DNA of 64,000 nt from a virus. Taxonomy: Duplodnaviria; Caudoviricetes. Position 1 is the first letter of the stretch; each line of letters starts with the position of its first letter. The position numbers were made by a program, and so were the translations under genes. The notes under the pieces are model-generated. The model saw nothing but the letters and a program-made list of their open reading frames with translations, did no database searches and was not told the DNA's origin. The stretch is from IMG/VR virus record IMGVR_UViG_3300021430_000575, positions 19,401 to 83,400 of that record; one strand, 5' to 3'. Below, piece after piece: positions 1,110 through 35,000 of this stretch.

Positions 1110-1198
1110 TGGAGCGGTGCGGGGTAATCGAAACCCATGTACCTTTTACAGTCGTCGGGTTGGAAGCCCGATGAAGGCCCCAGCCTTCCGCACACCGC
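1110..1198 (-). tRNA. tRNA-Gly(TCC) with long variable region
   Basis: Acceptor GCGGTGT/GCACCGC, anticodon arm TCGGG-CTTCCAA-CCCGA, TTCGATT T-loop, CCA; 89 nt. Confidence 0.85.
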
Positions 1199-1418: not shown

Positions 1419-1516
1419 TGGTGAAGTGGGATGGATTTTAACCACAATCTGCTCGCAGCAGCGGAAAGGCACGACCCGGGATCCTTTCCGGCAGCACGTT
1501 CCTCTGCCGCCACTTC
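1419..1516 (-). ncRNA. tRNA-like RNA with 6-bp D-stem and 13-nt anticodon-position loop
   Basis: Acceptor GAAGTGG/CCACTTC-A-CCA; CGGCAG/CTGCCG; GAAAGG-ATCCCGGGTCGTG-CCTTTC; variable arm CTGCT/AGCAG; T-arm GTGG-TTAAAAT-CCAT. Confidence 0.75.
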
Positions 1517-4119: not shown

Positions 4120-4203
4120 TGGAAGACCGGTGAGGTTCTGCCCCTCTTACGGGAGGATTAAAAGTCCTCTGGCGAGACTACTCTGCCTTTACGTTACCGG
4201 TCC
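4120..4203 (-). tRNA. tRNA-Lys(TTT), enlarged D region, atypical T-loop
   Basis: GGACCGG/CCGGTCT-T-CCA, GAGGA-CTTTTAA-TCCTC, T-loop GGCAGAA. Confidence 0.8.
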
Positions 4204-4666: not shown

Positions 4667-4743
4667 TGGCGACTCTTAGGGGTACTGCCCCCCTCATTTC
4701 CGCCGTGACAGGGCGGCGTCTTCACTATGCAGACCCAAGAGCC
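4667..4743 (-). tRNA. tRNA-Asp(GTC), atypical T-loop
   Basis: GGCTCTT/AAGAGTC-G-CCA, CCGCC-CTGTCAC-GGCGG, AGGGG-GGCAGTA-CCCCT. Confidence 0.85.
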
Positions 4744-6258: not shown

Positions 6259-6334
6259 TGGCTCCCAGGGAGGGCTTCGAACCCCCAACCACCCGGTTAA
6301 CAGCCGAGGGCTCTACCGATTGAGCTACCTAGGA
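6259..6334 (-). tRNA. tRNA-Asn(GTT)
   Basis: TCCTAGG/CCTGGGA, CTCGG-CTGTTAA-CCGGG, canonical D and T arms, CCA. Confidence 0.95.
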
Positions 6335-6351: not shown

Positions 6352-6484
6352 TGGCGGTAACATGTGGATTTTAACCACAAGCCTAACATTCTGTAGAATG
6401 GTCTTTGATTTATACTCTAATTATCAAAGTTTTATAGGCTCATACTCATCTGAGTGGAGTATGCAATCCCCTGCTTATGTTACC
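6352..6484 (-). ncRNA. 133-nt tRNA-like RNA with a branched domain in place of the anticodon arm
   Basis: Acceptor GGTAACA/TGTTACC-G-CCA, T-arm TGTGG-TTAAAAT-CCACA, internal helices ATACTC/GAGTAT, GAGCCTA/TAGGCTT, CTTTGAT/ATCAAAG, CATTC/GAATG. Confidence 0.8.
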
Positions 6485-6490
6485 ATAAAA

Positions 6491-6564
6491 TGGTGCTCCT
6501 AAGAAGAATCGAACTTCTATTACTATCGTACCAGGATAGTGTAATACCATTATACTATGGGAGC
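6491..6564 (-). tRNA. tRNA-Thr(GGT)
   Basis: CTATC-CTGGTAC-GATAG, AGAAG-TTCGATT-CTTCT, CCA. Confidence 0.95.
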
Positions 6565-6572
6565 ATTAAACT

Positions 6573-6664
6573 TGGTGGGAAGTAGCTCGAATTGAACGGC
6601 TTGCCAAAAGAGGAGCGAGGTTACAGCTCGCCGACGGGACCACCCATCCTTATTGATACTTCCC
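6573..6664 (-). tRNA. tRNA-Tyr(GTA)
   Basis: GGGAAGT/ACTTCCC, GCGAG-CTGTAAC-CTCGC, long variable region, TTCAATT T-loop, CCA. Confidence 0.85.
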
Positions 6665-6810: not shown

Positions 6811-6887
6811 TGGCGTTCCCAGACGGCGACAATCCGTCTCCTTCGCCTTGAAAGGGCGACGATCTAATCCACGTAATCTATGGGAAC
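6811..6887 (-). tRNA. tRNA-Glu(TTC), atypical T-loop
   Basis: GTTCCCA/TGGGAAC, TCGCC-CTTTCAA-GGCGA, GACGG-ATTGTCG-CCGTC, CCA; paralogue of 6671..6747 with compensatory changes. Confidence 0.85.
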
Positions 6888-6889
6888 AA

Positions 6890-7300
6890 ACTAGTATTTG
6901 TGATGGGATTCACACCCATATTTCCGGCCTCCAAATGCAAATGCTAATGGCCAGCGTGTTAAGTTAGAAACGGCCTTCAAAACCCCTCATATATACTCTG
7001 CAATTTTTCCTAATGCTTGACTTGTCTAGGCGCTGCCCCTAGCTCGACGTTTTTATAGCCTTTGCATTTAATATCAAACATTTTTACTAGAATGGTTTGT
7101 ATATACTACTCATTCCTACTACCCGTTAATTCAATTACACTACACAAAGCTCAGTAATTAAAAAAACTTATCCAGGACTTTCACCCGGTGTGAGCATCAC
7201 GCTCTCAGATAGATTTCTCATTCTACCACCGTTGGAGATCGGGTTAATGCATTGAGTTCGTAATTTACAAATTATACTCAACTACCTCTAACATGCATCA
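6890..7300 (-). ncRNA. Non-coding region with several T-arm-like hairpins
   Basis: ATGGG-TGTGAAT-CCCAT, CTAGG-GGCAGCG-CCTAG and CCGGG-TGAAAGT-CCTGG 5-bp/7-nt hairpins plus TTGAGT/ACTCAA; no convincing ORF. Confidence 0.45.
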
Positions 7301-7353
7301 AAGTCTATCTTATCAACACATTAGCCAACTTCGTTCTGTTAAAGCACACAATA

Positions 7354-8115
7354 TTATCCTGTGTGCTTTTTAAATACCTCATAAAATTCACTGTCAACGT
7401 CATCTATATTGGCAGCGATCATTGCAAATCTATCGAAAGGATCAAGGCCTTGTTGCAGACGATGCGAAATCTTTTCTATGTCAGTATAAGTTGAATTATT
7501 AAATTCTTGATGTGAAAAATTTTCTATTTTGGTTTTTATATCTTCTGGTGACCCCCAAAAGCTTAGATGATACCCAGCATTTTTAGCTGCGGCCATTTGC
7601 CATCTTTGATCTCTCAACTGTTGAGCAGTGAATTTATTCATTAATGCTTTTTTGCAAATTACAGTACCACACCAATCCTGCGGTATATACTGACTAAAAT
7701 TATAATAATATGTACGTTGTTCAGCTGTTACAGAATCAAATTTATCTAACAACTGTATAAAGTCTGGTAACAATTGTTTTAAAGGAATTTCATCTAGGTC
7801 ACTGATCATAACAACAGCATTGTTGTCAAATAACTTGACTACTTGATCTATATGTCCTCGTTGAGCAAATTCAATTTGCCAATTAAAATTATCATGGAAT
7901 AATGTTGTATCAATAGTTATCGGTTGATAAATTATTTTATCTAAATATTTCTTATATCGTTTTATATTACTTAGAAAATTAAGAGGCTTTTTCTTTCCTG
8001 CAAAGGTAATATCTGCTTCTACTATGACAAAATAGTCAACTGAATCATAAAGATATTCTAGTCGACCTTCCAGTAGATCTAATTCTCTAAAAAATGTAAA
8101 ACAATCAATTATCAT
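7354..8115 (-). CDS. Glycosyltransferase family 17-like (beta-1,4-GlcNAc transferase-like)
   Basis: IIDCFTFFRELDLLEGRLEYL...FVIVEA..TF.G..KPL; SDLDEIP; YHLSFWG...IKTKIENFSHQE. Confidence 0.8.
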   Translation of the reverse strand: MIIDCFTFFRELDLLEGRLEYLYDSVDYFVIVEADITFAGKKKPLNFLSNIKRYKKYLDKIIYQPITIDTTLFHDNFNWQIEFAQRGHIDQVVKLFDNNAVVMISDLDEIPLKQLLPDFIQLLDKFDSVTAEQRTYYYNFSQYIPQDWCGTVICKKALMNKFTAQQLRDQRWQMAAAKNAGYHLSFWGSPEDIKTKIENFSHQEFNNSTYTDIEKISHRLQQGLDPFDRFAMIAANIDDVDSEFYEVFKKHTG

Positions 8116-10011: not shown

Positions 10012-10084
10012 TGGTACCGGCTATTCGTACTGCCCGAATCTCGGATGGCGTTATGAGCACCACCGGGTCCTTGACCAAACCGGC
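10012..10084 (-). tRNA. tRNA-Met(CAT) (elongator Met or Ile2 not resolved), atypical T-loop
   Basis: GCCGGTT/AGCCGGT, TGGTG-CTCATAA-CGCCA, ATTCG-GGCAGTA-CGAAT, CCA. Confidence 0.8.
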
Positions 10085-10091
10085 ATAATAT

Positions 10092-10167
10092 TGGTTGGCC
10101 CGGCAGGTCCTGCCCCTGCGACCTCAGACTTATCAGGTCTGTGCTCTACTAACTGAGCTACGAGCCA
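10092..10167 (-). tRNA. tRNA-Ile(GAT), atypical T-loop
   Basis: CAGAC-CTGATAA-GTCTG, GCAGG-GGCAGGA-CCTGC, canonical D-arm, CCA. Confidence 0.9.
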
Positions 10168-10178
10168 TCGAAATAATT

Positions 10179-10254
10179 TGGGGTGCATAGTGGGTTCCGC
10201 CCCCACCTAAACAGAGTCACAGTCTGCCGGCTACACTAGCTGCCTCTACGCACC
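10179..10254 (-). tRNA. tRNA-His(GTG), atypical T-loop
   Basis: Encoded G-1 and C73, GCAGA-CTGTGAC-TCTGT, GTGGG-GGCGGAA-CCCAC, CCA. Confidence 0.9.
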
Positions 10255-10327: not shown

Positions 10328-10401
10328 TGGCAGGTCGACCAGGTATTGAACCCGGGCTAAAAGTTTTGGAGACTCTTGTGCTACCATTACACCACCGACC
10401 T
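10328..10401 (-). tRNA. tRNA-Trp(CCA)
   Basis: AGGTCGG/TCGACCT, AGAGT-CTCCAAA-ACTTT, CCGGG-TTCAATA-CCTGG, CCA. Confidence 0.95.
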
Positions 10402-12089: not shown

Positions 12090-13730
12090 TTAGCTAGAAA
12101 TCGTTGGTTTTACAACCTCATTCATAATTTTATTAATAGCTATTTCACCACCTGGTGTAGTTTCAAACGGCAATGAGTATGTGTCAAGTAGTTCTTTGAC
12201 TTTAATATCAAATCTCACAGCTTCAAGTTCATCTTTTTGATTTCTGCCTACTGGGTCATAGGTAAAATGTCGCTGTAATATGTAATTATAATTTTCATAT
12301 TCGTTAAAAACTTCCAGTACTAGGTTAGTAAAGTTTTTGCTAGTATATTCTGGTTTTACATATATAAGTCCCAGAGGAATTGGGCTGTCTGTGATTACCC
12401 AATCTATATTATGATTCTTTAGCCGTGCAATACGTCTTTGTTGTTTGGCAAATATATAAATTTGATCGTCAAATAAATCAACACGTCTTTCCCAGACAGC
12501 TTCTTTGGCATACTCTGTTACCAGTTCAACGCTGAGTTTTGATTTTTTCATTTCGTAAAAAAGTCCGGCGGCCGTTGTAGAATTATGTGTAACCACATAA
12601 TTATCAGTTACGTATAAATGATCTGTATGGTCAATCATAATACATTGAACTTCAGTTGTTCTAGAATATTCTATACTTTTGATTCTCAATTTTAAATCAG
12701 AATATTGGTAATTTTCTGGTAGTCGATTCATTTTTCTCGTAAGTTTACTTAATTTTCTTGGCTTGGGATATCTAATACAAACATTATAATTAATTTTACC
12801 AGATTCTTTTATACCTTTATACGTATATTTTGGGAATTTTTTTAATATTTTTGCTTGCCCTCCAAGTGACCAAATAATTTCTTGTATATCTTTAGCCAAT
12901 TGTTCGCTAGATGTAGAAATAGAAATGCTACCGCTTTTACAGACATACCCGTCAGAATCTACTAACCCGGCAATCAAATCTTCTTTTTGTGAAGTTGAAC
13001 CACGTTTATATAAATCTGGAATAAATTTGGTATATGAACGTGTACCAAATAATCCCAAATCAAATAATGATTTTTTATAGCAATTTCTAAAAACATTTCT
13101 TTTTCCTTGACCTTTAACAGATTCTGTAGGGTCTATGAACCTAATATTATATCCGTATTTTTGTGGCATTTTATGTATTTTATACTTTGACGATATCTTA
13201 TTGGACATTAAATTTACTATTTCATAGTCATTAGTTGTAAAAGATGTCAATGCTCGTTTACTTGAAAAGCATCCGTCCCCTAATAAAAAACCAAGAACCC
13301 ACGGATCAATTGGTAAAGGTATATCTATGGCATTTAAGTTTCTTACCATAGGTATTCTAAAAATTTGTGTTTTATTAGTCTTTAATTTATCCATCATCCA
13401 TTCTAATGATACGGTTTTATAATCTAATTTTCGCCCTGTATAATTGGATCTCGTCTTATAAGTATTGCCATATTTTCCATATATCTTCCAAAGATGATCT
13501 TTACAACATTCAACCGATCGGCCGTCAATAAATGTAATTTTATACACATCCTTAATCCCTTGTGGATATACTCCTACTACTTTTGAAACCTCTCCGTTTG
13601 GCACAGTAACAGTGGTTCCAATTTTTATATCCTTCATCTGTTTCCACCCATCAGGAGTCAAAACGTTTGCGTCTAATGGCTGAGCCTTCCCTGTTCCTGG
13701 GCCACCGAAGAGATTAATTACTTTCATCAT
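12090..13730 (-). CDS. P-loop nucleotide kinase (AAA_28/NadR-like) with intein
   Basis: Extein INLFGGPGTGK|STTAAGLF...ELVTEYAKE...ITDSPI. Confidence 0.85.
   Translation of the reverse strand: MMKVINLFGGPGTGKAQPLDANVLTPDGWKQMKDIKIGTTVTVPNGEVSKVVGVYPQGIKDVYKITFIDGRSVECCKDHLWKIYGKYGNTYKTRSNYTGRKLDYKTVSLEWMMDKLKTNKTQIFRIPMVRNLNAIDIPLPIDPWVLGFLLGDGCFSSKRALTSFTTNDYEIVNLMSNKISSKYKIHKMPQKYGYNIRFIDPTESVKGQGKRNVFRNCYKKSLFDLGLFGTRSYTKFIPDLYKRGSTSQKEDLIAGLVDSDGYVCKSGSISISTSSEQLAKDIQEIIWSLGGQAKILKKFPKYTYKGIKESGKINYNVCIRYPKPRKLSKLTRKMNRLPENYQYSDLKLRIKSIEYSRTTEVQCIMIDHTDHLYVTDNYVVTHNSTTAAGLFYEMKKSKLSVELVTEYAKEAVWERRVDLFDDQIYIFAKQQRRIARLKNHNIDWVITDSPIPLGLIYVKPEYTSKNFTNLVLEVFNEYENYNYILQRHFTYDPVGRNQKDELEAVRFDIKVKELLDTYSLPFETTPGGEIAINKIMNEVVKPTISS
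12582..13685 (-). mobile_element. 368-aa intein with LAGLIDADG endonuclease, class 3 signature
   Basis: Starts AQPLDA, ends VVTHN before Ser+1; HLW (block B), VQCIMID (block F), THN (block G); LGFLLGDGC and IAGLVDSDG motifs; inserted between K and S of Walker A. Confidence 0.9.
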
Positions 13731-30034: not shown

Positions 30035-30718
30035 TCATAGTCCAAATCTTCCTCGAGTTGCATTAAAAAGATGTGTTATTTCATTATTTGATAGAGCTCT
30101 GTTATATAACATTCCTGTTGCTACGTAGCCCCACGGTTGATTATTGCTACTATCACCTAAATTTCCTAACCAAACGTGCACTCCTCCGGCTACACTATAG
30201 GCTATCGTATTTCCTACTGGAACATCATTAACAAACAGAGAACTAGACCCACCTGATGATGTAATAGTCCACATTGTCCATTTAGCTTCGAGCTCGGCTG
30301 TGATAATATTATATCCAAATGATCTAAAAGTTCCACTGATCCACATGCCTGCTAGACCTGTGGTTTTTTGTATTAAAAAAGGATGATTACCGGTTGCCGA
30401 TGAATGTCTCCATAATGTTCTCCAAGTTGATACCTGCGAATCCAACAAACATCTAGCCCATGATACCATAGTGTATGATGCCGGCAATGTGTAATTAACA
30501 GACGTTCGTGTTATTACTCTACCAGTAGCTGCGCAGTCAAAACACTGAACTCCATCTTGCGATGTTAGTGCTACACCTGCTGAGAGAGTATGATTAATAC
30601 GATTTGTTGACAGATCGTTGAAACTGGTTCCAGATCCTGTATAACTGCGTGGATTAATCACGTCCAAGTATAAATCTAACCCAATAATTGGAATTAACGG
30701 TCCGTGTCCTAAACTCAT
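30035..30718 (-). CDS. LamG/ConA-like domain protein
   Basis: LYLDVINPRSYTGSGTSFNDLS...LYNRALS..EI..LFNATRGRFGL. Confidence 0.75.
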   Translation of the reverse strand: MSLGHGPLIPIIGLDLYLDVINPRSYTGSGTSFNDLSTNRINHTLSAGVALTSQDGVQCFDCAATGRVITRTSVNYTLPASYTMVSWARCLLDSQVSTWRTLWRHSSATGNHPFLIQKTTGLAGMWISGTFRSFGYNIITAELEAKWTMWTITSSGGSSSLFVNDVPVGNTIAYSVAGGVHVWLGNLGDSSNNQPWGYVATGMLYNRALSNNEITHLFNATRGRFGL

Positions 30719-32055: not shown

Positions 32056-35000
32056 TTAAATCTCCACCTTAAGTTTTGGTACGTCTTTTCTTTCTGCGTA
32101 AACAGTGTAAAAACATTTGATAGATTTTAGCCAACTTGAGCTGGCCACTGTTACGGTTTCAGCACTGATATTTTTTACATATAAACTCTGTGCCGACCCA
32201 TATGGTGTTAGATGTACCGTGATTGTGTCAGGATCAACTAGATGTTCCCAATACGCAGGTAGATCTATAACATCATCTCCGTCAAGTTTGCCTCTGATAT
32301 ACACACCATTTTCTGGACCTTCCAAGCTGGCATATTGTAGCTTCATGCCGGAGCGTGTTGGATGAGGTATTACGAAGCTCTTGGTTGTTGCTGCAAGACC
32401 GCCGTTTACAGTTAGTATATATCCGCTGACTGGAACAGTTGTACCTATTCCAACATTGCCGTTAACAAATATTTCTGAACCGGCAAATACATTACCTGCA
32501 ATTCCAACTCCGCCTGCTACGGTTAATGCTCCGGTTGTTGTGGAGGTAGATACCGTGGTATTGGTAACGGATATATTACCAACCCATGCACCGCTTGCAG
32601 TATAAACATTGCCTATCACAGTTAATTGTGCCTGTCCATAGACTGAACTTGTTCCGATACCTACTTGACCTGCAGGATTTACAAAGAACGTTGCACCGGT
32701 ATATACTCCTGCACTTCCGCTTACAGCTGGTCCTACTGCAAATGTTCCATCTACTGCTGTTTTTAATTGATAACCAGCCATACCGGCGTTTGCACCGGCA
32801 GTTCCAGATGCTGCCCAACGAAATCCACCATAGCTACCCGCAAAATAGAGGAGACCGGCAGCACCGGTACGACGATATGCAAACTTTGATCCGTCGTAAT
32901 AAACGTTTTCTCCAATGTGTGAATTGTTTAACGCATATGACTGAAACTCAAAAGAACCTGTGATGATATTTGGACGTGTAGTGTTAAAGGTACCAACGTC
33001 GAGTAATGTATTTGGAATAGTGGTTCCGATACCCACATACCCAACCGAACTAATTCTCATTTTTTCACTTGAATTGGTAGCAAATCCTAGTGTATTAGCA
33101 GTTGGTAACCATATACCATTTGGCGGTGCATTTGATCCGGTAACGTTTACGTTAGCTCCATTAATACTTCCGTCAACAAACAGGTTACTTGAAACACCAA
33201 CACCACCGGCTACGGTTAATGCTCCAGTTGTGCTACTAGTAGATGCAGTTGTATTGGTTATAGATAGATTACCAATTTGTGCGCTATTGGCAATACGTAC
33301 ATTTCCTGCAACATCTAATATTTGTGACGGAACAGTGGTTCCAATGCCAATTCTACCGTCGCTTCGTAGTGTTAAAACATTAGTGAGGTCACTTGGCAAA
33401 GTATTAGATAGCTTGATGTCTAGCTGAGTTCTAGCCCATACGCTGTCAAATCCCCATGCCGACATGTCAAACATTGCAAGCCCGGCATACACGACGCCGC
33501 TTTGGCCGCTTCTAGATAATACCATTACATTGCTTTGTGCGCTGCGTTGATTTGTGACCTTAGAAGTGATAATAGCACCGACATTGCTAAATGTAACAGA
33601 ACCTGTATCAGTCAGGTTATTACCGCTGTGTAGCGTAGCTAGTGGGTTTGTAACTCTAATTCCTACATTTCCACTTGAATTGATACGCATACTCTCTGTA
33701 CTTTTGGTTGAAAATCCTAGTGTATCAGCGACTGGTAACCAAATACCGTTTGGAGGAGCATTTGATCCAGTAACATTTACGTTAGCTCCATTAATACTTC
33801 CGCCAACAAACAAGTTACCTGCGACACCAATACCACCGGCTACAGTTAATGCACCAGTGGACGAATTGGTAGATATACTAGTATTAGTAACCGATATGTT
33901 CCCGACAGATACACTATTTTGAATAGCAGCATTACCTGTTAATGTTAATTGATTTGCGCCCGGATTAAAGGTAAACATAGGATCTGTTCTAATACCAATG
34001 TTACCGTTAGTTGCTTCGACGAAAGTAGGATAGAATGTTGCATTTGTAATAGTACTGGTTACAGATATATTGCTTGCGTTAAATGCTGTGTTGGCAACGC
34101 CAAATATTCGCCCGCCTACATATAAGTTTCCACCTACGCCAATTCCACCATTTCCTTGAATAATCAATGCGCCAGTTGATGTAGATGTAGATGGATTAGG
34201 TGTATTGCTTGCACTGCCGATCGTAATATTTCCAAATGCAGAGTCACCTAATGCTCCTGCATAAACTCCAGTTGTACTACCCGCTGTAGCATTGCTAATA
34301 TAAACAAATTGCCCTGTGCTATTTTGCCAACCAATAAACCCGTATCTATCTCCGCCGTTGGCGTAATAATGATATTCGAGACCTCGATCATAGCTATCTG
34401 AGGTTGTCAGAGGTTCTCCATTTGGTCCTGTGCCGATAGCCACCGACGGATCTTCAATTACTGTAATATTTGAGTTGATATAACTAACATTACCATTTAC
34501 AATTAGGTTACCAGCAACATATAAATTACCGCTAATACCAACACCACCTGCAACTGTTAATGCACCAGTTGTTGTACTAGTTGCTGCAGTAGAATTGGTA
34601 ATAGATATATTACCAATCCATGCACTATTTCCAGTGTAAACATTGCCTAACACAGTTAATTGTGCTGATCCATATACTGAGCTAGTACCAATACCAACTT
34701 TCCCCTGTACTGCTAATCCATCAGCCGGCGCCGCAGCTGACGATACGCCAGCATAGTTACGACCTATTACCTGATTCCCATAAACATCAACATTGTTAGT
34801 TGCTGCCGATCCGCCGCCTGCACCAACCCACAACCTACCGTTTCGTAGGTACATTACATTATACCCACTAAGTACGCTGTAACCATTACCATTAATTGAC
34901 CATGCGTATCCAGCTGAAAGATTATCAACATAAAATTGCATATAACCACTGCTAGCACCAATACCGACATTTGATATGCCTTCACGGTTCATTGCTATCC

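Follow-up and report, generated by a model that had tools for sequence, protein, structure and literature searches.

Stable tRNA-like RNAs encoded within phage tRNA clusters, such as species 1 and 2 of T4 and RNA1 and RNA2 of T5, have been known since the 1970s, and to our knowledge none of them has an assigned function. A tRNA-shaped element of 133 nt (e133) in the tRNA array of a giant freshwater phage raises the question of whether it is a further RNA of this kind, a tRNA that still decodes through an expanded loop, or a decaying copy of a duplicated tRNA gene. Here, we analyzed this element within a stretch of 64,000 nt (the window), which forms part of an 83.4-kb IMG/VR contig of freshwater origin. 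Positions are those of the window unless preceded by L017, which denotes contig coordinates (L017:7251-7358 is contig 7251-7358).

The tRNA array and its 133-nt element

CheckV rated the contig as 32% complete, and the genome of this phage is therefore probably well over 200 kb in size. Using ARAGORN, we delineated a tRNA array on the minus strand that extends from the start of the contig to about window position 10,400, spanning roughly 30 kb, and is interspersed with HNH, GIY-YIG and LAGLIDADG endonuclease genes and a gene for a GT17 glycosyltransferase. Code 11 fits the genome well: ORFs reach 2565 aa, and each of the three stop codons occurs (TAA 50, TGA 20, TAG 14), so that stop-codon recoding was rejected. 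The array also contains a full-length match to Rfam RF02496 (Atu_At1, a Rhizobiales sRNA) at L017:7251-7358 on the minus strand (98 bits, E 3e-16), a hint that the host may be an alpha-proteobacterium. A 546-aa ORF immediately upstream of the array head (12090-13730, minus strand) combines an AAA_28-type ATPase match with LAGLIDADG homing-endonuclease domains and has the appearance of a gene with an intein.

In many of the array's tRNAs (among them 497-570, 4120-4203, 4667-4743 and 10012-10253, minus strand), the T loop is GGCRGNA, or AUUGUCG in both Glu tRNAs, instead of UUCRANY, on stems that are still paired. In both metatranscriptome runs that were compared, an identical 157-nt contig with 0 mismatches exactly spanned the stretch 6889-7045. 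On the minus strand, this stretch stops 1 nt before tRNA-Glu(UUC) (6811-6887), TATAAA lies just upstream of 7045, and the fold is no better than that of shuffled sequences; it may represent an abundant leader or a processed spacer RNA of a tRNA sub-operon.

The initial annotation had described a tRNA-shaped element of 133 nt, and its boundaries proved exact: e133 lies at 6352-6484 (minus strand) and exactly takes up the space that separates tRNA-Thr(GGU) (6491-6564) from tRNA-Asn(GUU) (6259-6334). It starts 6 nt past the CCA of tRNA-Thr(GGU), with a U at position -1, and ends 17 nt ahead of tRNA-Asn(GUU), on the same strand as both. The combination of an acceptor, a T stem and NCCA is expected 0.37 times per 64 kb on both strands of the block-shuffled window, and 0.05 times if all pairs are required to be Watson-Crick. 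By comparison, the real window holds 17 occurrences, all of them in the array and on the minus strand, with none in the 53 kb of the window outside it. The fold of e133 also lies beyond chance, with a minimum free energy (MFE) of -36.8 kcal/mol (z = -3.9) and 0 of 200 shuffles as stable. An attP-type 3' fragment of a tRNA was ruled out by the perfectly complementary 5' strand of the element.

We regarded as canonical tRNAs those genes that score at least 29 bits with the RF00005 covariance model or receive an ARAGORN call; e133 has neither. ARAGORN made no call at e133 at default thresholds, with or without introns. Rfam, one of the routes to identification named in the initial annotation, returned nothing relevant at three sensitivities, and RF00005 and RF01852 gave no match, whether at the gathering threshold, at E ≤ 10 over 1.2 kb, or when the search was confined to 146 nt. 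A covariance model built from the phage's own 8/4 Gly tRNAs (R2) likewise gave no match to e133 at E ≤ 10 with filters off. With filters off, the same model found nearly every other tRNA of the array, as well as a 98-nt sibling of e133 at 10 bits. Its positives include an unannotated tRNA-Tyr(GUA)-like gene at 6573-6664 (minus strand; 23 bits, E 5.5e-4), which was missed by ARAGORN and Rfam and has an odd D region, an imperfect T stem and a CCA end.

At the level of sequence, e133 appears unique so far, with no homologue in any collection searched. Neither blastn of e133 nor megablast of 4 kb against 50,697 phage records retrieved a homologue, and an exact 27-mer of e133 had no match in IMG/VR. 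The T-arm pattern TGTGGTTAAAATCCA-N10-CCA matched twice in IMG/VR and 16 times in JGI metagenomes, all in non-tRNA contexts. We then fetched 12 related loci through the neighboring GT17 glycosyltransferase, which is 32-46% identical in the nearest IMG/VR relatives; blastn and nhmmer found no homologue of e133 among them. A single-sequence covariance model of e133 (R1) found none in the 12 loci, in the whole records of five relatives, or in the T4 and T5 tRNA regions; its sole weak match, in one of the loci (L011), was rejected as it falls inside a 324-aa ORF at a locus without tRNAs. A second neighboring protein yielded no relatives. The best phage match to the glycosyltransferase is 33% identical and no cultured relatives were found; a far closer relative (P0001) has a 91% identical glycosyltransferase and lies on a 35.6-kb Logan contig. 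None of four sequencing runs (two metatranscriptomes and two metagenomes) gave usable cover over 6352-6484, and they are neutral on expression and conservation. As a single sequence, e133 on its own is suggestive and not decisive.

Predicted fold on an 8/4 frame

The best fold of e133 was predicted to be an 8/4 'allo-tRNA'-type cloverleaf. In the 8/4 order, an 8-bp acceptor is followed by an AA linker, a GCAG-GGGA-UUGC hairpin and a directly adjoining 6-bp stem with a 9-nt loop; then come G44, a 6-bp stem around two hairpins (a and b), U106, a 4-bp T stem, the acceptor 3' strand and GCCA. The pattern comprises a D stem with a tetraloop, a lengthened anticodon stem, a long variable arm and G73. 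All of the parts described below lie on the minus strand.

The acceptor is formed by a 5' strand, GGUAACAU (residues 1-8, 6477-6484), and a 3' strand, AUGUUACC (residues 122-129, 6356-6363). Its ends GGUAACA and UGUUACC make 7 of 7 Watson-Crick pairs, and the discriminator G73 and an encoded CCA follow in the sequence (6352-6355), in agreement with the initial annotation; the pair probability is about 1.0 for residues 1-7. The T hairpin GUGG-UUAAAAU-CCAC (6364-6378) directly adjoins the acceptor 3' strand and retains G53:C61, U54, U55 and A58, with C56 replaced by A. Of the 5-bp T stem originally proposed, the four inner pairs stand at a probability of 0.99, whereas the fifth, U106-A122, is possible but reaches only 0.07. 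In the ensemble, A122 pairs instead with U8 (0.80), which favors an 8-bp acceptor and a 4-bp T stem over the 7/5 division on thermodynamic grounds.

The D-like hairpin GCAG-GGGA-UUGC (residues 11-22, 6463-6474) has a stem of 3-4 bp and a tetraloop, with a pair probability of only about 0.6 (0.49 for G14-U19). Among the core bases, U8 and the GG of the D loop are present and A14 is absent, a G following the stem. Next to it lies an anticodon-arm-like hairpin (residues 23-43, 6442-6462; pair probability about 0.55), which departs from the canonical 5-bp stem, 7-nt loop and U33 in having the 6-bp stem AUACUC/GAGUAU and the 9-nt loop CACUCAGAU. Residues 9-43 form a two-state ensemble, the D hairpin with the 6-bp stem accounting for about 0.55 and an alternative pair of hairpins (GGGG/CUCC plus ACUC/GAGU) for about 0.4. 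Folded alone, these residues gave a z of -0.18, and the 8/4 model with the D stem and the 6-bp anticodon-type stem lies 1.7 kcal/mol above the MFE.

A 63-nt three-way-junction domain (residues 44-106, 6379-6441) takes the position of the variable arm, with one unpaired base on either side. It is closed by the stem AGCCUA/UAGGCU (0.8-1.0), to which G44-U106 is an optional addition, and encloses hairpin a (6403-6429), with the 7-bp stem CUUUGAU/AUCAAAG and a 13-nt A/U-rich loop (0.93), and hairpin b (6387-6400), with the 5-bp stem CAUUC/GAAUG and a UACA tetraloop (0.99). When folded alone, the domain had a z of -3.6, and 0 of 200 shuffles were as stable. That a branched domain had replaced the anticodon arm, as the initial annotation put it, is not supported: the fold retains a hairpin of the anticodon type (6-bp stem, 9-nt loop), and the three-way junction sits in the variable-arm slot. 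In the modeled fold, the expanded parts of e133 are the anticodon loop, with 9 nt instead of 7, and the variable arm, which ends in a two-hairpin three-way junction. Within the window, antisense targets of the two large loops of e133 were no more frequent than in shuffled sequences. No second copy of the insert occurs elsewhere in the genome fragment, which ruled out a repeated or mobile insert.

The same frame is found in real tRNAs of the array. The tRNA-Gly(UCC) at 1110-1198 (minus strand) scores 51 bits with RF01852 (tRNA-Sec); its D stem is 6 bp long and capped by a tetraloop, its variable arm is long, and its T stem has 4 bp. The array's tRNA-Gly(GCC) and tRNA-Ser(GCU) (L017:13263-13349 and L017:7622-7707, both minus strand) fold in the same manner, with an 8/4 frame and a D arm made of a stem plus a tetraloop.

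Siblings in the array and known tRNA-like RNAs

Within the genome fragment, the sole significant similarity to e133 is a 16-nt T arm, UUGUGGUUAAAAUCCA, which is identical in the 98-nt gene at 1419-1516 (minus strand). Beyond the T arm, the sequence of this gene is unrelated to e133; it combines a D stem of 5-6 bp and an anticodon-type stem of 7 bp, whose 13-nt loop contains CCCGGG, with a class II variable arm and A73. Three further oversized tRNA frames lie on the minus strand of the array: one of 131 nt (L017:18324-18454) with a 39-nt variable region, a 25-nt 'anticodon' loop and G73 (RF00005, 32.5 bits), one of 156 nt (L017:8935-9090) with a variable region of about 86 nt, and one of 173 nt (L017:1242-1414), whose anticodon loop carries an insertion of about 90 nt. 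Contigs of two distantly related giant phages hold elements of 117 nt (L003:9781-9897, plus strand) and 111 nt (L002:9006-9116, plus strand) that fill gaps between tRNAs; each has a perfect acceptor, a canonical T arm and ACCA, lacks a normal anticodon arm, and receives no ARAGORN call. These two gap-fillers are unrelated to e133. Given the siblings of 98, 131, 156 and 173 nt and the gap-fillers of 117 and 111 nt in relatives, oversized tRNA frames are a recurring feature of such arrays.

By comparison with the stable RNAs of T4 and T5, e133 can be read as a new example of the look-alikes in phage tRNA clusters, the resemblance being one of kind and not of descent. It lies in a tRNA cluster on the same strand as the tRNAs, falls within 100-170 nt, and joins a terminal acceptor-type stem and a T arm to a non-tRNA body. 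In T5 (AY543070), RNA1 (30501-30644) and RNA2 (32959-33083) are annotated as 'tRNA-like stable RNA with unknown functions'. Like e133, they lie within the tRNA cluster, are co-oriented with the tRNAs and adjoin homing-endonuclease genes; at 125-144 nt, they too combine a terminal acceptor-type stem with a T arm, a normal anticodon arm or loop giving way to an enlarged central body, and RNA2 folds with an 8-bp terminal stem, as predicted for e133. They differ from e133 in having no similarity to it in sequence or by the R1 covariance model, and in their canonical T loops (UUCGAAU and UUCAACU), which e133 lacks. The expansion lies at the anticodon arm in the T5 RNAs and at the variable arm in e133, and the stable accumulation of the T5 RNAs is on record in the annotation, whereas that of e133 is a prediction.

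The initial annotation had also pointed to two stable RNAs without a known role in the tRNA cluster of T4. This agrees with the literature (PMC3014915) and with the T4 record AF158101, in which they are annotated as rnaC and rnaD. RNA C (species 1, 139 nt) and RNA D (species 2, 119 nt) are, like e133, small RNAs of a tRNA cluster with no known role, and the T4 ones are stable. In its computed fold, RNA C resembles e133 in having a canonical T arm beside the terminal stem and two long internal hairpins, whereas RNA D is not tRNA-shaped. Neither has R1 similarity to e133, nor do they show its arrangement of D-like and anticodon-like arms, and these T4 RNAs have no encoded CCA.

In frame, e133 is close to the allo-tRNAs (Mukai et al. 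2017, PMC5389517). These occur in 8/4 and 9/3 forms within irregular tRNA polycistrons, and some are charged but unused in translation; alpha-proteobacterial phages include 8/4 tRNAs in their tRNA clusters, and inactive forms of allo-tRNA, in which five stems meet at the junction or an extra loop is present, are also on record (PMC5389517). The traits shared with e133 are G73, a long variable arm, a lengthened anticodon stem and a D stem capped by a tetraloop, and the 12-bp acceptor/T branch of e133 is likewise predicted to be split 8/4. Unlike the allo-tRNAs, e133 has a 9-nt loop, a D stem of just 3-4 bp and a branched variable arm of 63 nt; RF01852, the model by which allo-tRNAs were found, gives it no score, and no toxin-antitoxin neighbors were seen at e133.

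A resemblance to serine tRNAs is also apparent. With bacterial (class II) tRNA-Ser, e133 shares G1:C72, G2:C71 and G73, and with the phage tRNA-Ser(GCU) at L017:4521-4613 a long variable stem with a single unpaired base on each side. Unlike tRNA-Ser, it has no serine anticodon in a 7-nt loop, its variable arm is branched, its T loop carries A56, and tRNA models do not recognize it. The likeness to the phage tRNA-Ser(GCU) in G1:C72, G2:C71, G73 and a variable stem of 6 bp or more between single unpaired bases makes recognition by SerRS conceivable, and e133 may be bound or even charged by this enzyme.

A different parallel is offered by engineered tRNA scaffolds for RNA expression, reportedly described by Ponchon and Dardel in 2007. 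As in e133, a structured RNA is embedded in a tRNA frame, and in the scaffolds the tRNA-processing enzymes release and stabilize the foreign RNA. The payload of the scaffolds replaces the anticodon arm, whereas that of e133 occupies the variable arm of a natural element.

Competing explanations and a possible role

The reading that we favor, and hold with about even confidence, takes e133 for a genuine RNA gene built on the 8/4 frame of the phage itself, whose product would be excised in the manner of a tRNA and then endure as a non-decoding RNA of tRNA frame. Its nearest known counterparts would be T5 RNA1 and RNA2, T4 RNA C and the inactive allo-tRNAs. That it is a real RNA gene is suggested by a motif and a fold far beyond chance and by its exact fit, on the same strand, to the gap between two tRNAs; the 8/4 frame is favored by the pairing of A122 with U8 over that with U106 and by the small gap of 1.7 kcal/mol between this model and the MFE, and Gly(UCC), Gly(GCC) and Ser(GCU), which are real tRNAs of the array, share this frame. 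The reading also draws on the other expanded frames of the array, one of which has the T arm of e133, on the gap-fillers of distant relatives, on the stable RNAs of T4 and T5, on the 8/4 and inactive allo-tRNAs of PMC5389517, and on the absence of further copies of the insert from the genome fragment. Against it stand the failure to find a homologue in the collections searched, the absence of a score with RF00005, RF01852 and R2, the ambiguous fold of residues 9-43, and the loss of A14 and C56. The element would be transcribed within a polycistronic tRNA precursor and freed by RNase P at G1, for which the determinants would be the U at -1, G1:C72, the 12-bp coaxial stack of acceptor and T stem, U54-A58 of the T loop, and the 3' GCCA. 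Ordinary 3' trimming would then take it back to the CCA. The initial annotation had already spoken of a mimic processed by RNase P and at the CCA end; all the features read by bacterial RNase P and by 3'-end maturation are indeed present in the tRNA-shaped gene, and the processing itself is predicted from them. The product would persist as a stable tRNA look-alike unable to read codons normally, in effect a natural tRNA scaffold displaying a branched domain.

It is also quite conceivable, though unlikely, that e133 is a neutral, decaying tRNA paralogue, in which an 8/4 copy in a duplicating array gained insertions in its anticodon loop and variable arm and is still co-transcribed and trimmed but idle. 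Such a history would sit well with the orphan status of e133 in the collections searched, with the absence of any score from the tRNA models (RF00005, RF01852 and R2), and with the loss of the core bases A14 and C56 next to a floppy 5' region. However, about 36 Watson-Crick pairs are kept in e133, and neither the acceptor and T stem nor the closing stem and its two hairpins contain a mismatch. The 63-nt insert, moreover, is not a repeated element and forms a closed three-way junction (z = -3.6), a product rarely given by random decay or insertion.

A working, aminoacylated tRNA whose expanded loop still decodes is an improbable alternative to a non-decoding RNA. The sub-loop CUCAGAU would present CAG, the central UCA would read UGA, or a codon of 4-5 bases might bring about frameshifting. 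Of the 9 loop bases, the last 7 (CUCAGAU) conform to Y32-U33-NNN-R37-N38, odd-framed allo-tRNAs decode in E. coli (PMC5389517), and the array lacks a Leu(CAG) tRNA. Nevertheless, normal decoding by e133 is unlikely because of the 9-nt loop, here set on a 6-bp stem, and the missing bases of the tertiary core. With G73 as discriminator, e133 differs from the array's five Leu tRNAs, every one of which has A73, and no suppressor is needed in a genome that code 11 fits and that uses all three stops.

We regard an intron-containing tRNA as very improbable. With thresholds relaxed to 85% and introns allowed, ARAGORN called a tRNA-Pyl CUA (amber) with a 53-nt intron at position 34, and siblings in the array resemble tRNAs with anticodon-loop insertions of 8-105 nt; at default thresholds with introns allowed, however, the call disappeared. 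We rejected it as it pairs non-adjacent strands into a mismatched stem, breaks the perfect hairpin b, and would read TAG, an ordinary stop codon in this phage. An intron of 53 nt is also far below the size of group I introns, Rfam gave no ribozyme, and no gene for an RtcB ligase was found in the fragment, whose 83 kb make up only about a third of the genome.

A miniature tmRNA, or a Y-RNA-like (YrlA) partner of the Ro60 protein of the type that some jumbo phages encode as a tRNA-like RNA together with TROVE/Ro60 (PMC7824862), is hardly plausible at all: tRNA-like ends do surround a structured body in e133, but position 3:70 is U-A and not G3:U70, ARAGORN and Rfam gave no tmRNA or YrlA, the 133 nt contain neither pseudoknots nor a tag frame (the initial annotation had likewise set tmRNA aside), and the tRNA-like module of YrlA is internal and without CCA, whereas the termini of e133 form an acceptor with CCA. 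No TROVE gene was found in the 83-kb fragment; since this is only about 32% of the genome, the absence there of genes for TROVE, RtcB and a CCA-adding enzyme is uninformative.

If e133 is a processed, non-decoding tRNA-frame RNA, one speculative and rather unlikely role would be to act as a decoy for, or to titrate, a factor of the host or of the phage that recognizes a tRNA shape made of acceptor, T arm and long arm. The initial annotation had proposed a sponge for tRNA-targeting defenses or a binder of stress sensors, and these roles too would be conjectural. In a broader and still less probable version, e133 and its siblings (98, 131, 133, 156 and 173 nt; at least five) would form a battery of deliberately expanded, processed, possibly aminoacylated, non-decoding look-alikes that titrate tRNA-targeting host factors, such as anticodon nucleases, acceptor-end toxins and SerRS-type readers of the long arm, with the three-way junction as a dedicated binding platform. 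If true, this would establish a first functional class of tRNA decoys in phages and offer a hint as to the roles of T4 RNA C and of T5 RNA1 and RNA2.

In summary, this phage carries several tRNA look-alikes in one array. They are predicted to use the unusual 8/4 frame, and they lie amid tRNAs whose T loops are altered and whose variable arms are long. If the look-alikes are merely decaying copies, they illustrate the turnover of large tRNA arrays. If they are made and conserved, they would provide a richer set for asking whether such RNAs act as decoys against tRNA-directed defenses, as charged non-decoding carriers or as natural scaffolds.
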